Under the pieces are notes generated by a model, which saw nothing but the letters and a program-made list of their open reading frames with translations, had not been told where the DNA came from and searched no databases. From the NCBI GenBank assembly GCA_964457525.1, contig CAYWGS010000098.1, positions 1 to 5,704 of the forward strand: a stretch of DNA of 5,704 nucleotides, in the 5' to 3' direction. Numbering within the stretch: the first letter of the stretch is position 1; the number at the start of each line of letters is the position of its first letter. The translations under genes were made by a program, and so were the position numbers. Source of the stretch: an uncultured Erysipelotrichaceae bacterium (lineage in GTDB: Bacteria; Bacillota_I; Bacilli_A; Erysipelotrichales; Erysipelotrichaceae). This document shows, piece by piece, positions 1 to 5,704 of the stretch.

Positions 1-237
1 TCCTAGTATCATCGGTTTCTTAGGTAATTTGTAACCTGATTTAAAGTATAAATTCAAACAAACAGTAATAAAACAATAAACGATAAATATTAGACTGTTA
101 TGTAAAGCAAAAGAAGTAGATTGATTAAATGCATTATAAAAGTCTAAATCTAAAACAATCGATAAAAACACAAAAAACAGTATCGCAAATAATTGCGTTA
201 AAATGATAATCATTAATGATTTAGATAATTTCATCAT
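1..237 (-). CDS. Hypothetical integral membrane protein, N-terminal fragment (3' end runs off the left window edge)
   Basis: Manual minus-strand translation. ATG at 237-235 overlaps the aminotransferase TGA stop (236-234) as ATGA, and a second ATG follows at 234-232. The frame stays open for 79 codons to position 1: MMKLSKSLMIIILTQLFAILFFVFLSIVLDLDFYNAFNQSTSFALHNSLIFIVYCFITVCLNLYFKSGYKLPKKPMILG. It has two hydrophobic segments of about 20 aa followed by a basic loop. It is missing from the ORF track, presumably because no stop lies inside the window. I recognise no family. Confidence 0.55.
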   Translation of the reverse strand, partial: MMKLSKSLMIIILTQLFAILFFVFLSIVLDLDFYNAFNQSTSFALHNSLIFIVYCFITVCLNLYFKSGYKLPKKPMILG

Positions 238-1382
238 TTTCTTAAATCAGTAACCATTTGAACAAAACGGTTTAAACCTTCAAATAAATCTGATTCTTTT
301 ACTGCATAGGAAATACGTAGATAATTATCGGTTAAATCACTAAAATAAACGCCTGGAACTAGTGCGACTTTATATTCGTTTAGTGCTTTTAAACAGAAGT
401 CTTCACTATTCATCTTAAATTCACCAATATTAATAAATAAATAGAATGCTCCTTCTGGATTAACATATGGGATATTATTCTTATCCAATATTTCTTTACA
501 ACGATTGAGTCGATCAAAATAAATACGTTTTATTTCAGTTGTATCTTGTTTAAGAGCATCAATTGCGGCTCTTTGAATAAAACTTGTTATACCAGTTACG
601 AGATAACTATGTATGCTATTAATGTGTGTTGCAATCGGTTGATCTGCCATTAAATAACCAATTCGCCATCCTGTCATAGCATACGGTTTCGAATAGCTTT
701 GTGCCACAATCAATAAATGACGAATGCTTGGATCATCACTCAATTTATGGAAATCATTTGTATATACTAATTGATGATAAACATCATCACTTAAGATAAA
801 AATACGATGTTTAAGTGCAACTTTTTTAACTGCTTCTAAACTATCCTTCGTATAAACCACACCTGTTGGATTATTTGGAGAAGTTATCACTATCAACTTA
901 GTTCTTTCACTAATACATGAATTAAGCGCATCTTCATCTATTTGAAAATTCGTTTTAGTTGTATCTAACTGAACTAACTTAGCTTTACAATATTGAATCA
1001 TTGGTAAATACGAGACATACATTGGAGCCGGGATAATCACTTCATCCCCTTCATTTAATAGAGCTAAAAATGTGGAAGCTAAACCTTCAGTAGAACCATT
1101 GGTAATGATTATTTCATCACTCGTGTAATTCATCACATTATTCTTTGATTCAAACTCAGAAATGGCCTTTCTAAGTTCTGGTAAACCTTGTCCAGGAGGA
1201 TAATGTGTCACATTATGATCAAGTGCTAATTTAGCGGAATTCTTAATAAGATCGTCTGTATTAAACTCAGGTTCACCAATGGTGAGTGAAACGACACCAT
1301 CGATTTTAGCTGCAGCTTCTGCAAATTTACGAATTCCACTTTTTTTAAACTTTAATACTTGTTGATTGACTCGATCTAGCAT
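234..1382 (-). CDS. PLP-dependent class-I aminotransferase (AspB/PatA-like)
   Basis: 382-aa ORF. SD GAGG (complement of 1390-1393) lies 7 nt upstream of ATG 1382-1380. Class-I aminotransferase hallmarks occur in canonical order: SGIRKF near the N-terminus, LTIGEPEF, SPNNPTG, LSDDVY, the PLP-lysine motif SYSKPYAMTGWRIGY (K232) and a C-terminal LRISY arginine. Overall it is collinear with my recollection of B. subtilis PatA. Substrate cannot be assigned from sequence alone. Confidence 0.93.
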   Translation of the reverse strand: MLDRVNQQVLKFKKSGIRKFAEAAAKIDGVVSLTIGEPEFNTDDLIKNSAKLALDHNVTHYPPGQGLPELRKAISEFESKNNVMNYTSDEIIITNGSTEGLASTFLALLNEGDEVIIPAPMYVSYLPMIQYCKAKLVQLDTTKTNFQIDEDALNSCISERTKLIVITSPNNPTGVVYTKDSLEAVKKVALKHRIFILSDDVYHQLVYTNDFHKLSDDPSIRHLLIVAQSYSKPYAMTGWRIGYLMADQPIATHINSIHSYLVTGITSFIQRAAIDALKQDTTEIKRIYFDRLNRCKEILDKNNIPYVNPEGAFYLFINIGEFKMNSEDFCLKALNEYKVALVPGVYFSDLTDNYLRISYAVKESDLFEGLNRFVQMVTDLRK

Positions 1383-1402: not shown

Positions 1403-2068
1403 TTAATCATCAAATCTGAATCGATAATGACCTGTGATCCCCATCGTATAATACCCATATTCTAAACGATCTTCTTCTCGAACTGGTTGATCATTGTTAT
1501 GGATTAAGAATGGAATATCATTATCATTACGAATATCTGAAACAATTCCAATATGTTCATCATTACCAAACACTACAATATCACCTGCTTTCCATTCAGC
1601 TGTATCATATATGTCGGTTGTCAATACTTCTGCATGATTCTTAAAATAGACTGTTAAATTTTGAACTCTTCTAAAATCAATATTAGGATCACGGTACTTA
1701 ATATGATCGTAATTTGATCGATTATTCTTAATATCTTCATCAACTAAATCCTTTAATAATATCCCAGCTTCTTTAAAAGCTCTCCATACTAAATCTGTAC
1801 AAGTACCCTCATTATCTGGTGGATATCCTCCTGAATAATAAGCACTGATATACGCTGGCATTGCTAGAGCATCCTTACGCGCCCCAAGAATTAGTTTTTC
1901 AACTTGTGTTAGTTCTTTAACTTCAACAATCGGTTCTTCAATAACTACTTCTTCTTTATCTTGGTTTAAAAACATATAACCAAAAAAGCCCCCTACTAAC
2001 AAGATAAATAATAGTAAGAACCATTGAAATTTAAGTTTTAGTTTTTTCTTTTTCTTAGTGTAAATCAT
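1403..2068 (-). CDS. Membrane-anchored DUF1287 (YijF-like) protein, putative NlpC/P60-like papain-fold enzyme facing outside
   Basis: 221-aa ORF. The N-terminus is a Lys-rich stretch plus one hydrophobic helix (TKKKKKLKLKFQWFLLLFILLVGGFFGYMFL), which reads as an N-in signal anchor. The remaining roughly 150 aa match recalled DUF1287 blocks: GTCTDLVWRAFKEAG, NIDFRRVQNL, GDIVVFGNDEHIGIVSD, LIHNN and ITGHYRF. The Cys...HIGIV His...H/N pattern resembles NlpC/P60 catalytic architecture. An in-frame TGA at 2083-2081 prevents any upstream start. Confidence 0.85.
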   Translation of the reverse strand: MIYTKKKKKLKLKFQWFLLLFILLVGGFFGYMFLNQDKEEVVIEEPIVEVKELTQVEKLILGARKDALAMPAYISAYYSGGYPPDNEGTCTDLVWRAFKEAGILLKDLVDEDIKNNRSNYDHIKYRDPNIDFRRVQNLTVYFKNHAEVLTTDIYDTAEWKAGDIVVFGNDEHIGIVSDIRNDNDIPFLIHNNDQPVREEDRLEYGYYTMGITGHYRFRFDD

Positions 2069-2130: not shown

Positions 2131-2154
2131 TTGAATATAAGAAAGGAAGATATT

Positions 2155-2316
2155 ATGAAAAAGTATGCTTGCTTAGCTTGTGATTACATCTATGATCCTG
2201 CTGTTGGCGATCCAGACAGTGGAATTGCTCCTGGTACAGCCTTCGAGGATATTCCAGATGATTGGTACTGCCCACTATGTGGCGTAGATAAAACAAGTTT
2301 CGTTCCTGTTGATTAA
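2155..2316 (+). CDS. Rubredoxin (53 aa)
   Basis: [53 protein letters not shown]. It has both iron-binding knuckles (CxxC = CLAC, CPxCG = CPLCG) and the conserved [16 protein letters not shown] and K..F blocks. I start it at ATG 2155, which has a good SD, rather than the ORF-track TTG at 2131, which would sit inside the promoter/leader. It ends in tandem stops TAA TAA at 2314-2319. Confidence 0.93.
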
Positions 2317-2321
2317 TAAAG

Positions 2322-2345
2322 AAAAGCGGCGTTATAGCCGCTTTT
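2322..2345. terminator. Bidirectional rho-independent terminator shared by rubredoxin (+) and the flavodiiron gene (-)
   Basis: AAAAGCGGC (2322-2330), GTTATA loop (2331-2336) and GCCGCTTTT (2337-2345) form a perfect 9-bp stem with a GCGGC core. A U-run follows on both strands: TTTT on +, TTTTCTTTATT on -. It begins 5 nt after the rubredoxin stop and overlaps the flavodiiron stop codon (2344-2346). Confidence 0.75.
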
Positions 2346-3555
2346 AACTATTTAGGATTGATTCTGATATTACTTTAGCTAAATCATCTAATGCTTGCAT
2401 ATTATCTTCTTTAAGCGTTGATTTGATTAATAGAGGTTCTCCAATAATCTCAACGTTTTTCATCTTCTCTATCATTGTTTGAAGTTGTTCAAGTGTTTGA
2501 CCACCCCAAGTAGAATTAACAACCAATGAGAATTTACGATTTTGTAGATTCAAACTAGCAAATTCATGTAATAGGTTATTAATCTTATAAAATACATTTG
2601 TGTTATAGGTTGGTGTCGCAATAACAATATGACTGTATTTCCATGCTTCAGAAACTAAGTAAGAAGGATCTGTTTCAGAAACATCATAGACACGCATATC
2701 ACGTACACCATATTGGCCCATTCGAGTCGCAAGTGTATCCGCAACACTTTCAGTATTGTTATACATCGTCGCATAAATAATAAGTGCACTCTTTGTCTCA
2801 GGTACATAATGAGACCATTTATCATATTTATCTAAAATAAGTGCTAACTCTTCATTTCTGTACATCGGCCCATGTAATGGGCATATCATATTAATTACTT
2901 CATTGGATAGTTTTTTCATAATTCCTTGTACAGGAACACCAAACTTACCAACGATATTTGAATAATAACGTCGTGCTTCATCTAAATGATCTCTACGATA
3001 ATCCATCTCATCCGCAAAATAGGTTCCATTATGAGCTCCAAATGTACCAAATGCATCTGAAGAGAATAAGATATGATTCGTAAAATCAAGTGTCATCATA
3101 ACTTCTGGCCAATGAACCATTGGGGCGGTATAAAAACGTAATTTACGTGAGCCTAAATCAAGTTCATCTAAATCCTTCACAATCATGTAATTTTTCTTTG
3201 CGTCAAAATCATAAAACTGTTCAAAGAACTGAAATGTTTTTGCATTACCAATAAATTTAACATCTGGGTAACGACGAATAATTGTTTCAATATTCCCACA
3301 ATGATCCGGTTCCATATGATTAACAACCAAATAATCTAAGTTTCTTCCATTAAGCACTGCTTCAACATTGTCAATATAAAGTTGACTTATTGAACTATCC
3401 ACTGTATCGAGTAAACAAGTCTTTTCATCTACAATTAAATATGAGTTATAAGCTACTCCAAAACGTAATGGGAAAAGATTCTCAAAACGTTGAAGTCTTC
3501 TTTCGTTTCCACCTACCCAATGAAGTTTAGGCGCAATTTCATGTGTATTCTGCAT
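2344..3555 (-). CDS. fprA: Class-A flavodiiron protein (FprA-type O2/NO reductase; metallo-beta-lactamase-like diiron domain + flavodoxin-like domain)
   Basis: 403-aa ORF. SD AAAGGAG (complement of 3564-3570) lies 8 nt upstream of ATG 3555. The full diiron ligand set occurs in canonical order: H-x-E-x-D-H (NHMEPDHCG), PMVHWPE (His), SSDAFG (Asp) and CPLHGP (His). The C-terminal flavodoxin-like FMN domain is present (ALIIYATMYNNTE, ATPTYN, NSTWGG). Confidence 0.93.
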   Translation of the reverse strand: MQNTHEIAPKLHWVGGNERRLQRFENLFPLRFGVAYNSYLIVDEKTCLLDTVDSSISQLYIDNVEAVLNGRNLDYLVVNHMEPDHCGNIETIIRRYPDVKFIGNAKTFQFFEQFYDFDAKKNYMIVKDLDELDLGSRKLRFYTAPMVHWPEVMMTLDFTNHILFSSDAFGTFGAHNGTYFADEMDYRRDHLDEARRYYSNIVGKFGVPVQGIMKKLSNEVINMICPLHGPMYRNEELALILDKYDKWSHYVPETKSALIIYATMYNNTESVADTLATRMGQYGVRDMRVYDVSETDPSYLVSEAWKYSHIVIATPTYNTNVFYKINNLLHEFASLNLQNRKFSLVVNSTWGGQTLEQLQTMIEKMKNVEIIGEPLLIKSTLKEDNMQALDDLAKVISESILNS

Positions 3556-3626: not shown

Positions 3627-4340
3627 TTATGGATAATTAATATTCTTCTCATCCTTGAATTCTATTACTCTTTTATAATAGGCTTCTAATAAATCTTCTT
3701 CAAATGGTATTACTTCATTCTTATAGCCTATATCTTTTAAGAATGCTTTAGTAAATATTGGATTCATAACTAGAATCGGGCCTAAGCAATGTGTCCCATA
3801 AAAATTGTAATACTTAATTCCTTCAGGATCTAAGTCTTTATTAAACCCTATTCCACGTTTTAAGGTCAACCAAACAGGTAAATCACTTGTTGGATAAACA
3901 CGTGTAAATTGACTCTTAAATCCAACAAATTCATAACCATTATAATCAGCTAAAACATAAGAATTAAATCGATGCATTAAATCTTGTTTGCTATAAAAAG
4001 GAAAGATATCAAGTGCTGGAATTTCATTTCCATCTTCTTCAATTATCTTAGTCCCAAATAGTTCAAATGCATTTCCAGTTATTAGAAAATGAACATTATT
4101 CTCAATGAGTTCAATCAATCGTTTTTTATACGGTAATAATTTCTCAATAATAATCTTCTGAAAACGTTCGGTTGTAGGACCCATAAAAATCAAATCCACA
4201 TCATGATCGACAAAATAGGGTTTAGAATTCATATCTGTTTCGATAAATTTCGCATCTTTAAATGCTAGTTTAAGATAATCAATATTCCCCTTTTCGCCAT
4301 ATAAGGCCGCAACACATGGATAAAGTAGTTCTATTATCAT
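3627..4340 (-). CDS. gatD: GatD-like protein (CobB/CobQ-type GATase fold, partner of MurT); predicted catalytically inactive glutaminase
   Basis: 237-aa ORF that starts 2 nt after the murT-like stop, the canonical murT-gatD order. It is collinear with recalled S. aureus GatD: ALYGEKGNIDYL ~ NLYSDIGNIIAL, DLIFMGPTTERFQ ~ DIFFIGGGSDREQ, FLITGNAFELFG ~ GLTICGGYQFLG, VGFKSQFTRVY ~ VGFENHGGRTY, EGIKYYNFYGTHCLGPIL ~ EGIHYKNLLGTYLHGPIL. The fold-defining hydrophobic pattern is kept but the active-site residues are not (see findings). Confidence 0.85.
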   Translation of the reverse strand: MIIELLYPCVAALYGEKGNIDYLKLAFKDAKFIETDMNSKPYFVDHDVDLIFMGPTTERFQKIIIEKLLPYKKRLIELIENNVHFLITGNAFELFGTKIIEEDGNEIPALDIFPFYSKQDLMHRFNSYVLADYNGYEFVGFKSQFTRVYPTSDLPVWLTLKRGIGFNKDLDPEGIKYYNFYGTHCLGPILVMNPIFTKAFLKDIGYKNEVIPFEEDLLEAYYKRVIEFKDEKNINYP

Positions 4341-4342
4341 AC

Positions 4343-5704
4343 TTAAACTCTACTTTCTATTTTTCGAATTAAACGTTCACGAATAATCTTAGCTTCAGGA
4401 ATATTCTTTGTACCATTTAAAATATATATCGCATCAACGATATCCAGATTAACACAATCAACTGTCCCTAATTCTTCATAAGAATAGGAATATTTACTTA
4501 CATCAATACCTGCCATCTGAACACGAATCTTTAAATCTAGAACACGTTCACCACCACCAATGATTTGTTTAATATAATCCTGATTTAAATACTCAAAATC
4601 CGTATCAAAGTACCAAGCATTATTTTCACTTAAGGTATGATGTTCTGTATTCTCATTAATAAGTATAACAGCTGATTTTTGATGATTCTGTTTTCGAATA
4701 TAATCAAATACACGTGATGTCGCAACAGGATTCTGATCCTTAGTCATCATGATAATAATTTTCTTATCTTTTACTGTTACTTCATCAAATCTTGACTTAA
4801 CAATCTTCAACTTATTCAGCTGATCATTAATTTGACGTAGATTCAAACCAATTTTATACAAGAAAGTAATGCATGAAAGCAAATTATAATGATCTGTTAT
4901 ATTATCGCCAATTGTTTTAAAACGAACAATATTATTATCCAATTGAACTAATAATTCATTTTTATTGATATCAAGTTTAGCACTTACATCAGCTGAGATA
5001 GACTTAAAATCACAATTTGGACAATACACACGACCAATATGATGGTAACGGTTGAAATCATAAACTAAAGTATGATTGCACTTTGGACAGTTTACAAGAT
5101 CTTTAATTCGACTATCTTTTATTTCAATTTCATTTTCTATAGGTTCTAAACCAAAACTAATTCGATCATTCCCTTTACATAAAAATGAACTAAGTGGATC
5201 ATCCGCATTTACAATCAACTTCGTCTCTTTTGGAATATACTTCTCTAAAATATCAGTAATAAACTCCACATGCGCATTCCGGCGATAAGAATCTCTAAAC
5301 AAGTTTGTAACAATTAATGTATCCGGTTTAATATGTGGATAAATATACGGTGAAACGCGCTCATCTACTTCTAAAACAATATAATCTGGTTTGATTTTAT
5401 TACCCATAAGATTTGTTGCATTTACCATTGTCGTAATAATACCTTCACGAATATTACTACCCATAAGATTACTAACTACAGAGAAATTCGATTGAACTAA
5501 AACATCACTGATTAAATTTGTGACTGTTGTTTTTCCATTTGTTCCTGTAATAGCAACAAGATTATTCGGTTTTGGTACATACTTCAAAAAATTAGGACAA
5601 ATACGCATTGCAAGTGCACCTGGAAACTGAGTTCCATTCCTACCTAATTTCTTTAATAAAAATACAGATGATTTTGCGCCATATAAGGCAATATAGTATC
5701 GAAT
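4343..5704 (-). CDS. murT: MurT-like Mur-ligase family protein (lipid II isoglutaminyl synthase ligase-subunit homologue), 5'-partial at window edge
   Basis: The frame is open from the stop at 4343-4345 to position 5704. Manual translation upstream of the ORF-track Met (5608) gives IRYYIALYGAKSSVFLLKKLGRNGTQFPGALA-MRICPNFLKYV... This aligns with the S. aureus MurT N-terminus (AIHLAKLARKASRAVGKRGTDLPGQIARKV), so the real start lies a few codons beyond the window. Motifs present: P-loop ITGTNGKTT, LEVDE, TNLFRDSYRR (~TNFFRDQMDR) and NADDP. The MurT-specific Zn ribbon is also present: CPKCNHTLVYDFNRYHHIGRVYCPNCDF. The C-terminal DUF1727-like region (WYFDTDFEYL ~ WIYDADFEKL) is also present. Confidence 0.9.
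   Translation of the reverse strand: MRYYIALYGAKSSVFLLKKLGRNGTQFPGALAMRICPNFLKYVPKPNNLVAITGTNGKTTVTNLISDVLVQSNFSVVSNLMGSNIREGIITTMVNATNLMGNKIKPDYIVLEVDERVSPYIYPHIKPDTLIVTNLFRDSYRRNAHVEFITDILEKYIPKETKLIVNADDPLSSFLCKGNDRISFGLEPIENEIEIKDSRIKDLVNCPKCNHTLVYDFNRYHHIGRVYCPNCDFKSISADVSAKLDINKNELLVQLDNNIVRFKTIGDNITDHYNLLSCITFLYKIGLNLRQINDQLNKLKIVKSRFDEVTVKDKKIIIMMTKDQNPVATSRVFDYIRKQNHQKSAVILINENTEHHTLSENNAWYFDTDFEYLNQDYIKQIIGGGERVLDLKIRVQMAGIDVSKYSYSYEELGTVDCVNLDIVDAIYILNGTKNIPEAKIIRERLIRKIESRV

Follow-up and report, generated by a model that had tools for sequence, protein, structure and literature searches.

The window analysed here is a stretch of 5,704 nucleotides from an uncultured Erysipelotrichaceae bacterium (contig CAYWGS010000098.1), and two adjacent genes on its minus strand encode proteins that resemble the two subunits of the lipid II isoglutaminyl synthase MurT/GatD. 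This enzyme is an essential and drug-targeted part of Gram-positive cell-wall synthesis, and the coupling of a glutaminase to a ligase is regarded as its defining feature. The GatD-like protein of 237 amino acids (AAs), encoded at 3627..4340 (minus strand), lacks the Cys-His dyad of the glutaminase. Based on homology, fold, selection and the family-wide loss of this dyad, it is very probably a glutaminase-dead structural subunit of a MurT-type ligase. The open reading frame (ORF) was found as described in an earlier note on this DNA, which had read the protein as a pseudo-glutaminase. This reading was borne out by each of the checks suggested in the note (alignment, superposition and selection on orthologs), but it needs additions, as the loss is family-wide, ancient and sharply bounded and not peculiar to this gene. 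The pair is a variant of the MurT/GatD kind and lies outside GatD proper and MurT proper by the defining tests.

Judged by its sequence, the protein is a distant homolog of GatD. The GatD chains 9sq9_C, 5n9m_A, 6gs2_A and 6fqb_E in the PDB match it with E-values of 1e-15 to 3e-13, and the solved GatDs used for comparison were those of Streptococcus pyogenes, Staphylococcus aureus and Streptococcus pneumoniae. Scores for the NCBIfam equivalogs of GatD, NF052463 and NF045636 (68.9 bits with a cut-off of 450, and 65.1 bits with one of 400), stay far below the curated cut-offs, and the Pfam family PF07685 (GATase_3, CobB/CobQ-like) scores 24.0 bits, below its gathering score of 27. Many more distant members of the GatD-like family do carry a precomputed PF07685 match. 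The AlphaFold2 model of the protein, built on 120 relatives, has a predicted local distance difference test (pLDDT) score of 94.7 and a predicted template modeling (pTM) score of 0.92. When this model was superposed on crystal structures with Foldseek, the best matches were the GatDs 5n9m and 6gs2, with template modeling (TM) scores of 0.84-0.86 over about 240 columns, followed by other class-I glutaminases (HisH, PdxT) at about 0.55. The extra C-terminal helix of the GatD fold is present as helix 214-229. According to the model, the GatD fold is thus retained, as the earlier note had expected.

The motifs of the glutaminase site were located in three independent HMMER alignments to the solved GatDs and with MAFFT and hmmalign, all of which agree column by column. 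Residue counts given for the family are from 188 members that are non-redundant at 60 % identity. The nucleophile elbow T-I-C94-G-G-Y-Q-F-L-G of GatD is aligned with I-T-G89-N-A-F-E-L-F-G (residues 87-96, 4053..4082, minus strand), so that the Cys94 column holds Gly89 and the Gln98 column holds Glu93. Across the family, position 88 is Thr in 155/188 members, position 89 is Gly in 167 (Ser in 15 and Cys in one), position 90 is Asn in 175, and position 93 is Glu or Asp in 185/188. The former oxyanion strand G54-P-T-T-E58 (4167..4181, minus strand) stands in place of the glycine-rich G-G-G-(S/Q)-D motif and is aligned with G59-G-G-S-D63, so that only the first Gly of Gly-Gly-Gly is kept; Gly54 is found in 176/188 members and Glu58 in 177/188. 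The strand G140-F-K-S-Q-F-T146 (3903..3923, minus strand) replaces G-F-E-N-H-G-G and, of the new motifs that mark the family, is the one conserved best (Lys or Arg at 142 in 164/188, Ser or Thr at 143 in 147, Gln144 in 143, Phe145 in 176). In the former histidine loop, G182-T-H-C-L186-G-P-I-L190 (3771..3797, minus strand) replaces G-T-Y-L-H189-G-P-I-L, with Leu186 at the His189 column. Residue 186 is Leu, Ile, Val, Thr or Met family-wide, while Gly187 and Pro188 occur in 186/188 members. Since the protein falls short of the curated cut-off and has lost the Cys, the His and the oxyanion glycines, it is placed outside GatD proper.

All four replacements had been read in the same way in the earlier note, which also gave residues 87-96 for the elbow correctly. 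The nucleotide range it attached to them, 4053-4088, corresponds to residues 85-96. Its claim that every recognizable active-site motif had been lost stands for the dyad, the Gly-Gly-Gly motif and the GFENHG block, but several other motifs are kept. The lid loop L13-Y-G-E-K-G-N19 (4284..4304, minus strand) corresponds to L16-Y17-S-D19-I-G-N22 of S. aureus GatD and retains the canonical Tyr plug and the acidic residue at the Asp position (Tyr or Phe at 14 in 168/188 members, Asp or Glu at 16 in 185/188, Asn at 19 in 156/188). The roles of the corresponding Tyr30 and Asp32 have been described for S. pneumoniae GatD (PMC6085368). Also kept are the EG motif and the interface loop GP(I/L)L..NP, and the loop by which GatD binds MurT is retained. 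The segment H123-R124-F-N126-S (3960..3974, minus strand) combines a retained arginine with a family-specific Asn126 (Arg124 in 176/188 and Asn126 in 151/188 members). Arg124 is aligned with the Arg of NRF in streptococcal GatDs and lies one residue off Arg128 in the S. aureus alignment; on this alignment, it is the equivalent of the glutamine-sequestering Arg128, and the earlier suggestion that a counterpart of the glutamine-binding Arg persists here is borne out.

A dyad that has moved to other positions was also considered. The pair His184-Cys185 of the window protein was ruled out because both residues are confined to its clade, with Tyr and Leu at these positions in most members. Among the 188 members, the column richest in Cys reaches 46 % and the one richest in His 27 %, and no relocated dyad was found. 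The condition that the earlier note had set for refuting its reading, a Cys and a His elsewhere at equivalent positions, was thus not observed. The Cys column with 46 % is column 11 in the N-terminal lid region, where the window protein has Ala11.

The loss extends over a large family. The relatives retrieved in a word-indexed search, 183 in number and with identities as low as 41 %, are all without the Cys and the His. When 1.84 billion cluster representatives were searched with a profile, 327 clusters (50 % identity) were obtained with E<=1e-30, and the best 150 clusters include not one in which the dyad columns hold a Cys as well as a His. Relatives were found in 326 GTDB species in a scan of one genome per species. 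With a profile of the most divergent members, family members score at least 220 bits and the next proteins at most 126 bits; the latter carry the complete canonical motifs GGG(S/Q)D, CGGYQLLG, GFENHGG and GTY(I/L)HGPLL, and no intermediates between canonical GatD and the GatD-like family were found in this search. Due to this drop in score, with canonical motifs beyond it, the family boundary is sharp. In the source annotations, family members appear as 'hypothetical protein', 'glutamine amidotransferase' or 'lipid II isoglutaminyl synthase (glutamine-hydrolysing)', the last of which is almost certainly wrong for them.

Work at the level of loci covered the best 80 loci of the 326-species scan, 79 of which include upstream sequence. 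All 80 are from metagenome-assembled genomes (MAGs) of uncultured bacteria, mostly of human, rabbit, chicken, mouse and ruminant guts, and many record titles name gut or rumen MAGs (Hadza gut, rabbit, chicken, mouse, goat, deer). Their labels comprise Erysipelotrichaceae, Bacilli, Tenericutes, Clostridia, Clostridium sp. CAG:245, Lachnospiraceae, Eubacteriaceae and Acutalibacteraceae, and further named carriers are Oscillospiraceae and Coriobacteriales MAGs. A divergent subfamily (P0384-P0391) has the motifs WFGNS and GHKS(T/S)FS. Its locus (L084, 7903-12601) lies between an IspD-like nucleotidyltransferase gene and a convergent Asp/Glu-racemase-family gene with a gene for a 395-AA protein without a Pfam match, within the S6-SSB-S18 / GdpP / DnaB region.

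The second gene of the pair is that of the MurT-like ligase (4343..5704, minus strand), assigned by its MurT_C domain, its matches to MurT chains in the PDB and its adjacency. Between its stop codon and the start (ATG) of the GatD-like gene there are 2 nt. The ORF listed for it (4343..5608, 421 AAs) starts at an internal ATG, and the true frame is open to the window edge. In longer contigs with an identical GatD-like protein, the full gene encodes 456 AAs (MKPIRYY...; L081, 8628-9998), the first three codons being beyond the window. In 79/79 loci with upstream sequence, as in the window, the gene immediately upstream of the GatD-like one is MurT-like and has the same orientation. Moreover, four proteins are fusions of a MurT-like and a GatD-like part: P0137 (728 AAs), P0156 (730), P0160 (698) and P0254 (758). 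They have a low-complexity linker, keep the P-loop and the zinc ribbon and lack the triad. P0254 looks high in G+C and is probably from another phylum.

MurT_C (DUF1727) scores 64.3 bits in the MurT-like protein against a gathering score of 25, and Mur_ligase_M scores 36.6 against 24. MurT is its best NCBIfam ligase family (151.9 and 146.1 bits, with the next family at 67), although these scores are below the equivalog cut-off of 800, and PDB MurT chains match with E-values of 1e-39 to 8e-45. Residue counts were obtained from 79 MurT-like sequences mapped to S. aureus and S. pneumoniae numbering. In 78-79 of them, Lys59, Asn85, the Mg-binding Glu108, Asp134/136, Arg138/140, the four zinc-ribbon Cys and Trp352 are kept. 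In the window, the ATP-binding P-loop TGTNGKTT (5525..5548, minus strand) is intact, with its Lys in 78/79 ligases, as is the MurT-specific Cys4 zinc ribbon CPKC ... CPNC (5012..5089, minus strand). The Asn of a G-S-N motif (5453..5461, minus strand) corresponds to Asn85 of S. pneumoniae MurT and is found in 79/79 ligases; this residue contacts the acceptor carboxylate, and its N85A variant is dead (PMC6085368). From its sequence, the protein is clearly a MurT-type ligase with an intact core.

What has changed in the ligase are the residues on the side of GatD. The loop F-R-D-S-Y-R-R-N-A-H (5270..5299, minus strand) corresponds to the MurT 135-143 loop, which is the putative ammonia-channel and GatD-interface loop (PMC6085368). 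Its Asp and Arg are kept in 79/79 ligases, and Glu141/143 is replaced by His in 75/79. Where MurT has DNAAD-GRD-TSW, the window protein has INENTEHH..SENNAW (4613..4660, minus strand). The DNAAD motif is absent, Arg348 is Glu in 79/79 ligases, and the Asp349 of the triad is never kept: this column holds Asn in 69 sequences, Thr in six, Val in two, and Phe and Arg in one each. Because of its score below the cut-off and the loss of DNAAD-GRD with Asp349, the partner is placed outside MurT proper. At the sequence level, the whole inter-subunit triad Cys94-His189-Asp349 is gone across both proteins, and the two subunits have shed the glutaminase machinery in concert, with the ligation machinery preserved.

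Both genes are under purifying selection. Among the closer relatives of the window, pairwise ratios of non-synonymous to synonymous substitution rates (dN/dS) are 0.06-0.19 for the GatD-like gene and 0.04-0.15 for the MurT-like gene, compared to 0.02-0.09 for the nearby flavodiiron gene. The former active site is not degenerate either, as other residues, strongly conserved in turn, have taken its place. This was assessed with 37 sequences non-redundant at 70 % identity and with 28 positions homologous to the oxyanion strand, the elbow, the Arg128 region, the GFENHG strand and the His loop of GatD. Of these, 16 are among the 45 most conserved positions of the protein, where about 5.3 would be expected (hypergeometric p=1.4e-6). 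The new consensus comprises D/E16, N19, G54, E58, T88-G89-N90-A91, E/D93, which replaces the Gln of CGGYQ, R124, N126, G140-F-K142-S143-Q144-F145, T183 and G187-P188. Within the former active site, only the His column and its two predecessors are variable. Going by these residues, the conserved pocket is polar or charged, rich in acids, and would face MurT. Therefore, the term pseudo-enzyme is apt as far as the lost chemistry goes, but it probably does not capture everything that the pocket does.

Mutants of the canonical enzyme indicate what such replacements do. In S. aureus GatD, each of C94A, H189A and R128A abolishes glutaminase activity (PMC5871853), while GatD C94S and MurT D349N abolish or severely reduce activity (PMC6113224). 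MurT/GatD-C94G has lost glutamine-dependent lipid II amidation but keeps the ammonia-dependent reaction at pH 8.5 (PMC3266927). With Gly and Leu at the dyad columns, these three studies sustain the pseudo-glutaminase reading. In the family, the C94G and D349N replacements that disconnect the S. aureus enzyme from glutamine are the wild-type state. S. aureus MurT alone is inactive with any nitrogen donor (PMC3266927), from which it follows that GatD is structurally required. A precedent from another enzyme is mitochondrial CPS1, in which an inactive glutamine amidotransferase (GATase) domain with Cys replaced by Ser is kept and external ammonia is used (PMC4655335). In full-text literature searches, no description was found of a GatD family without Cys and His, of a pseudo-GatD or of a MurT paralog paired with one. 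The archaeal 'MurT-like' proteins of the pseudomurein literature have no GatD partner and are unrelated.

Taken together, we propose that the GatD-like protein would be a non-catalytic GatD paralog and the obligate second subunit of a divergent, catalytically intact, ATP-dependent ligase of the MurT type. It may be needed as a structural or allosteric partner and would have been kept because MurT is inactive without it. The conserved pocket (D/E16, E58, T88-G-N90, E/D93, R124, N126, K142-S-Q-F145) might then be an interface locked in the 'on' state, an entry or binding site for the nucleophile, or both. The substrate is probably, though less assuredly than the structural role, the D-Glu alpha-carboxyl group in a lipid-linked precursor, where the MurT-like protein would act on D-iso-Glu. 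The nucleophile could be taken from solution and, if it is ammonia, the product would be D-iso-glutamine. Free ammonia, which is abundant in gut and rumen, is the most economical nucleophile, given that it is still used by the C94G variant and that the carriers come from gut and rumen; it is suggested tentatively, at somewhat less than an even chance. The complete proposal of a glutamine-independent ligase for the D-Glu alpha-carboxyl group of lipid II, with a non-catalytic GatD subunit and ammonia as the likeliest nucleophile, comes close to an even chance without reaching it.

The systems closest to the pair show how far this proposal follows known enzymes. With MurT/GatD of S. aureus, S. 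pneumoniae, S. pyogenes and Mycobacterium tuberculosis (6GS2, 6H5E, 6FQB, 9SQ9, 5N9M), it shares the murT-then-gatD operon. In the GatD-like protein, the shared features are the GatD fold with its additional helix at the C-terminus, the interface loop GP(I/L)L, the lid loop and Arg128, and in the MurT-like protein they are the P-loop, Asn85, Glu108, the Cys4 zinc ribbon and MurT_C. The pair differs in the absence of the triad and of GGG, in the changes of GFENHG to GFKSQF, R348 to E and E143 to H, in the loss of DNAAD, in identities of only about 25 % (GatD) and 30 % (MurT), in scores far under the equivalog cut-offs and in a score gap without intermediates. The C94G and D349N mutants of S. 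aureus carry the same replacements that are natural in the pair. However, they are single changes in a canonical enzyme and are crippled at neutral pH, whereas the natural replacements are part of a co-evolved conserved set across both subunits. Like the pair, CPS1 keeps a class-I GATase module without the nucleophile Cys as a structural part of an ammonia-using, ATP-dependent synthetase. In contrast to the pair, it is an ATP-grasp enzyme and not a Mur ligase, its domains are fused in a eukaryotic protein, and it keeps the His and Glu of its triad. This likeness is therefore one of functional analogy and not of homology of the system.

The surroundings of the pair were compared by clustering the neighbors at the 80 loci, which revealed only lineage-specific synteny, with housekeeping genes at most loci and no conserved operon partner naming the substrate. 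The majority arrangement is AspRS-MnmA-[pair]-RlmN-PP2C-PASTA kinase-RsgA. In 16-22 Clostridia-type loci among L008-L078, the pair lies between a block of AspRS, MnmA and a small coiled-coil protein and a block of RlmN, a PP2C phosphatase, a PASTA Ser/Thr kinase and RsgA. Cell-wall neighbors recur, namely a divergent upstream gene for a PgdA-like polysaccharide deacetylase at 12 loci, the PASTA kinase cluster at 16, and MBOAT with GDSL genes at two. The housekeeping, PgdA-like and MBOAT-GDSL surroundings are consistent with a cell-wall role but do not name the nucleophile.

Several neighbors are restricted to few loci. In L081 (5733-8586) and also in L002, L003 and L005, genes for an S-adenosylmethionine (AdoMet) decarboxylase, a spermidine synthase, a HAD hydrolase and a small membrane protein of the MamF_MmsF family lie directly upstream of the MurT-like gene, on the same strand and with overlaps or short gaps. 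This SpeD-SpeE adjacency is confined to the clade of the window and is absent in L006, L007 and all Clostridia-type loci. An ATP-grasp gene (ATPgrasp_ST, 126 bits) is found 20-43 nt upstream of the MurT-like gene in L023, L059, L060 and L080 (Lachnospiraceae, Emergencia, Eubacteriaceae), and its product could perform a second ligation step on the same substrate. A gene of the arginase/agmatinase family lies directly downstream of the pair in L040, L056 and L071, and one for a class-III aminotransferase directly upstream (33 nt) in L014 and L020. Enzymes of these two families are able to make diamines or diamino acids.

Several points weigh against the use of free ammonia by a mere scaffold. 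The former pocket is not relaxed, and its new conserved polar and charged residues suit a larger ligand better than a scaffold or the entry of a small gas. S. aureus MurT/GatD uses ammonia only at pH 8.5 and not at pH 7.5 (PMC3266927). An ammonia-dependent enzyme would be expected to need adaptations, none of which is visible in the sequence. In the MurT-like protein, remodeling has affected DNAAD, the proposed stem-peptide binder, as well as the channel loop (E143 to H), and for this reason the substrate or the nucleophile may differ. Finally, plain amidation would be redundant if the carriers also hold a canonical murT-gatD. No second GatD homolog was found in 85 loci (about 1 Mb), a sample that is uninformative at genome scale.

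These points lead to the main rival, in which the same two-subunit ligase joins the D-Glu alpha-carboxyl group to an amine or amino acid instead of ammonia. It is unlikely, although not negligible, and the same holds for its candidate nucleophiles. These are glycine or an amino acid of the bridge, such as type-B or Micrococcus-type peptidoglycan contains, or else a di- or polyamine, for which Selenomonas and Veillonella provide the models. In the GatD-like protein, the acid-rich pocket, situated at the interface with the C-terminal domain of MurT, might help to bind the nucleophile with a similarly limited likelihood. The glutamine pocket has been rebuilt with the conserved D/E16, E58, E/D93, N90, N126 and Q144 together with R124 and K142, and the changes of DNAAD, R348 to E and E143 to H in the ligase accompany it. 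Slightly more doubtful still is a conversion of the former glutaminase pocket into the binding site for such a nucleophile, be it glycine, a di- or polyamine or the residue with which a 2-to-4 interpeptide bridge begins. For Mur ligases, the addition of amino acids is the ancestral activity, and their C-terminal domain, which holds GatD in MurT, binds the incoming residue. Substitutions of the D-Glu alpha-carboxyl group with glycine and polyamines act on lipid-linked precursors, and in 1967 Katz and colleagues reportedly observed an ATP-dependent, tRNA-independent addition of glycine to lipid intermediates in Micrococcus luteus. Putrescine and cadaverine on the D-Glu alpha-carboxylate are established in Negativicutes (Selenomonas, Veillonella, Anaerovibrio), with no enzyme named (PMC10628300, PMC12826042). 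These activities concern the same stem-peptide position that MurT activates, but these papers name no gene for them, and neither their taxa nor known type-B taxa are among the labeled carriers, so that a link to the pair is a hypothesis. The scattered, lineage-limited neighbors, i.e. SpeD/SpeE in the clade of the window, the arginase family at three loci, the class-III aminotransferase at two, ATP-grasp at four and the Asp/Glu racemase beside the divergent subfamily, are in keeping with amines or amino acids. In contrast, no association with amine genes holds family-wide, and most loci show housekeeping synteny. Furthermore, the GatD site is 20-40 Å from the ATP site in MurT/GatD structures (PMC6113224), and for this reason direct attack by a nucleophile at the GatD site would require a large domain closure. 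Erysipelothrix has type-B peptidoglycan, and a type-B wall of Erysipelotrichaceae was considered as a general explanation; it was rejected, as the family also occurs in Clostridia-type, Oscillospiraceae, Acutalibacter and Coriobacteriales MAGs.

Alternatively, the GatD-like protein may still be a hydrolase or amidotransferase, with a new site, for example Thr88 or Ser89 with Lys142 and Ser143, that frees ammonia from glutamine or another amide. T88, N90, K142, S143 and Q144 are indeed conserved at the level of an active site, Ser occupies the nucleophile column in 15/188 members, and the elements with which GatD captures glutamine, Arg124 and the lid loop, are still present. Such a site is nevertheless improbable because Gly, which cannot act as a nucleophile, is at this column in 167/188 members, the C94S variant of S. 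aureus GatD is dead (PMC6113224), and both the general base His and its partner Asp are gone. In the model, K142 and S143 are neighbors on a beta-strand, and their side chains should face opposite sides. To our knowledge, no class-I GATase fold with such a mechanism has been reported. Fainter still is the prospect that the pair has left peptidoglycan precursors for another carboxylate, such as a peptide linked to capsule or teichoic acid or a small metabolite, or that the GatD-like protein is a metabolite sensor regulating the ligase. It would account for scores far under the equivalog cut-offs in both proteins (69 vs 450; 152 vs 800) and for the missing DNAAD motif associated with the stem peptide. 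However, the MurT-specific C-terminal domain, the zinc ribbon and the acceptor-carboxylate Asn85 are conserved, MurT is by far the top ligase match (152 bits vs 67), and the cell-wall neighbors described above recur. The loss of the catalytic residues could also suggest a decaying, functionless gatD remnant, which has next to no probability: the frame is intact in hundreds of species, dN/dS indicates purifying selection, the residues that have come in are invariant, some members are fused to the partner, and the model has high confidence. Decay is excluded by these conservation data.

In addition to the pair, the window, which has a G+C content of 30-35 %, contains further genes. It has six ORFs longer than 60 AAs with a Pfam match, five of them on the minus strand. 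An aminotransferase gene (234-1382, minus strand) is followed by a gene for a DUF1287 protein (1403-2068, minus strand) with an N-terminal hydrophobic segment and weak similarity to CHAP (E-value 3e-5) and NlpC-P60 (E-value 0.04), which may be a cell-wall peptidase or amidase. This gene is syntenic with the pair only in Erysipelotrichaceae-type loci. A rubredoxin gene (2131-2316, plus strand) and the flavodiiron gene (2344-3555, minus strand), the product of which has an ODP metallo-beta-lactamase and a flavodoxin domain, are convergent. Gene callers start the rubredoxin eight codons later (53 AAs) than the listed TTG-initiated ORF. Rubredoxin and flavodiiron proteins are a typical pair for the detoxification of O2 and NO in strict anaerobes. 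Promoter and terminator scans of the region gave nothing above background.

The large and sharply separated sister family identified here has dropped the whole inter-subunit triad while keeping both subunits, the ligase chemistry and a rebuilt pocket. If the complex uses free ammonia, it would be a natural, optimized counterpart of the C94G mutant and would explain why MurT cannot do without GatD as a structural partner. If another nucleophile is used, the D-Glu alpha-carboxyl substitutions, which have long been known but lack genes, would gain a gene family that can be searched for, and its carriers, uncultured gut Firmicutes and Coriobacteriales in their hundreds, would have a peptidoglycan modification so far unseen in these bacteria. 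This would bear on NOD1/NOD2 sensing as well as on susceptibility to lysozyme and antibiotics. Glutamine is thus probably not needed by a large group of uncultured gut bacteria when they modify their cell-wall precursor, and the route they take has so far not been described.

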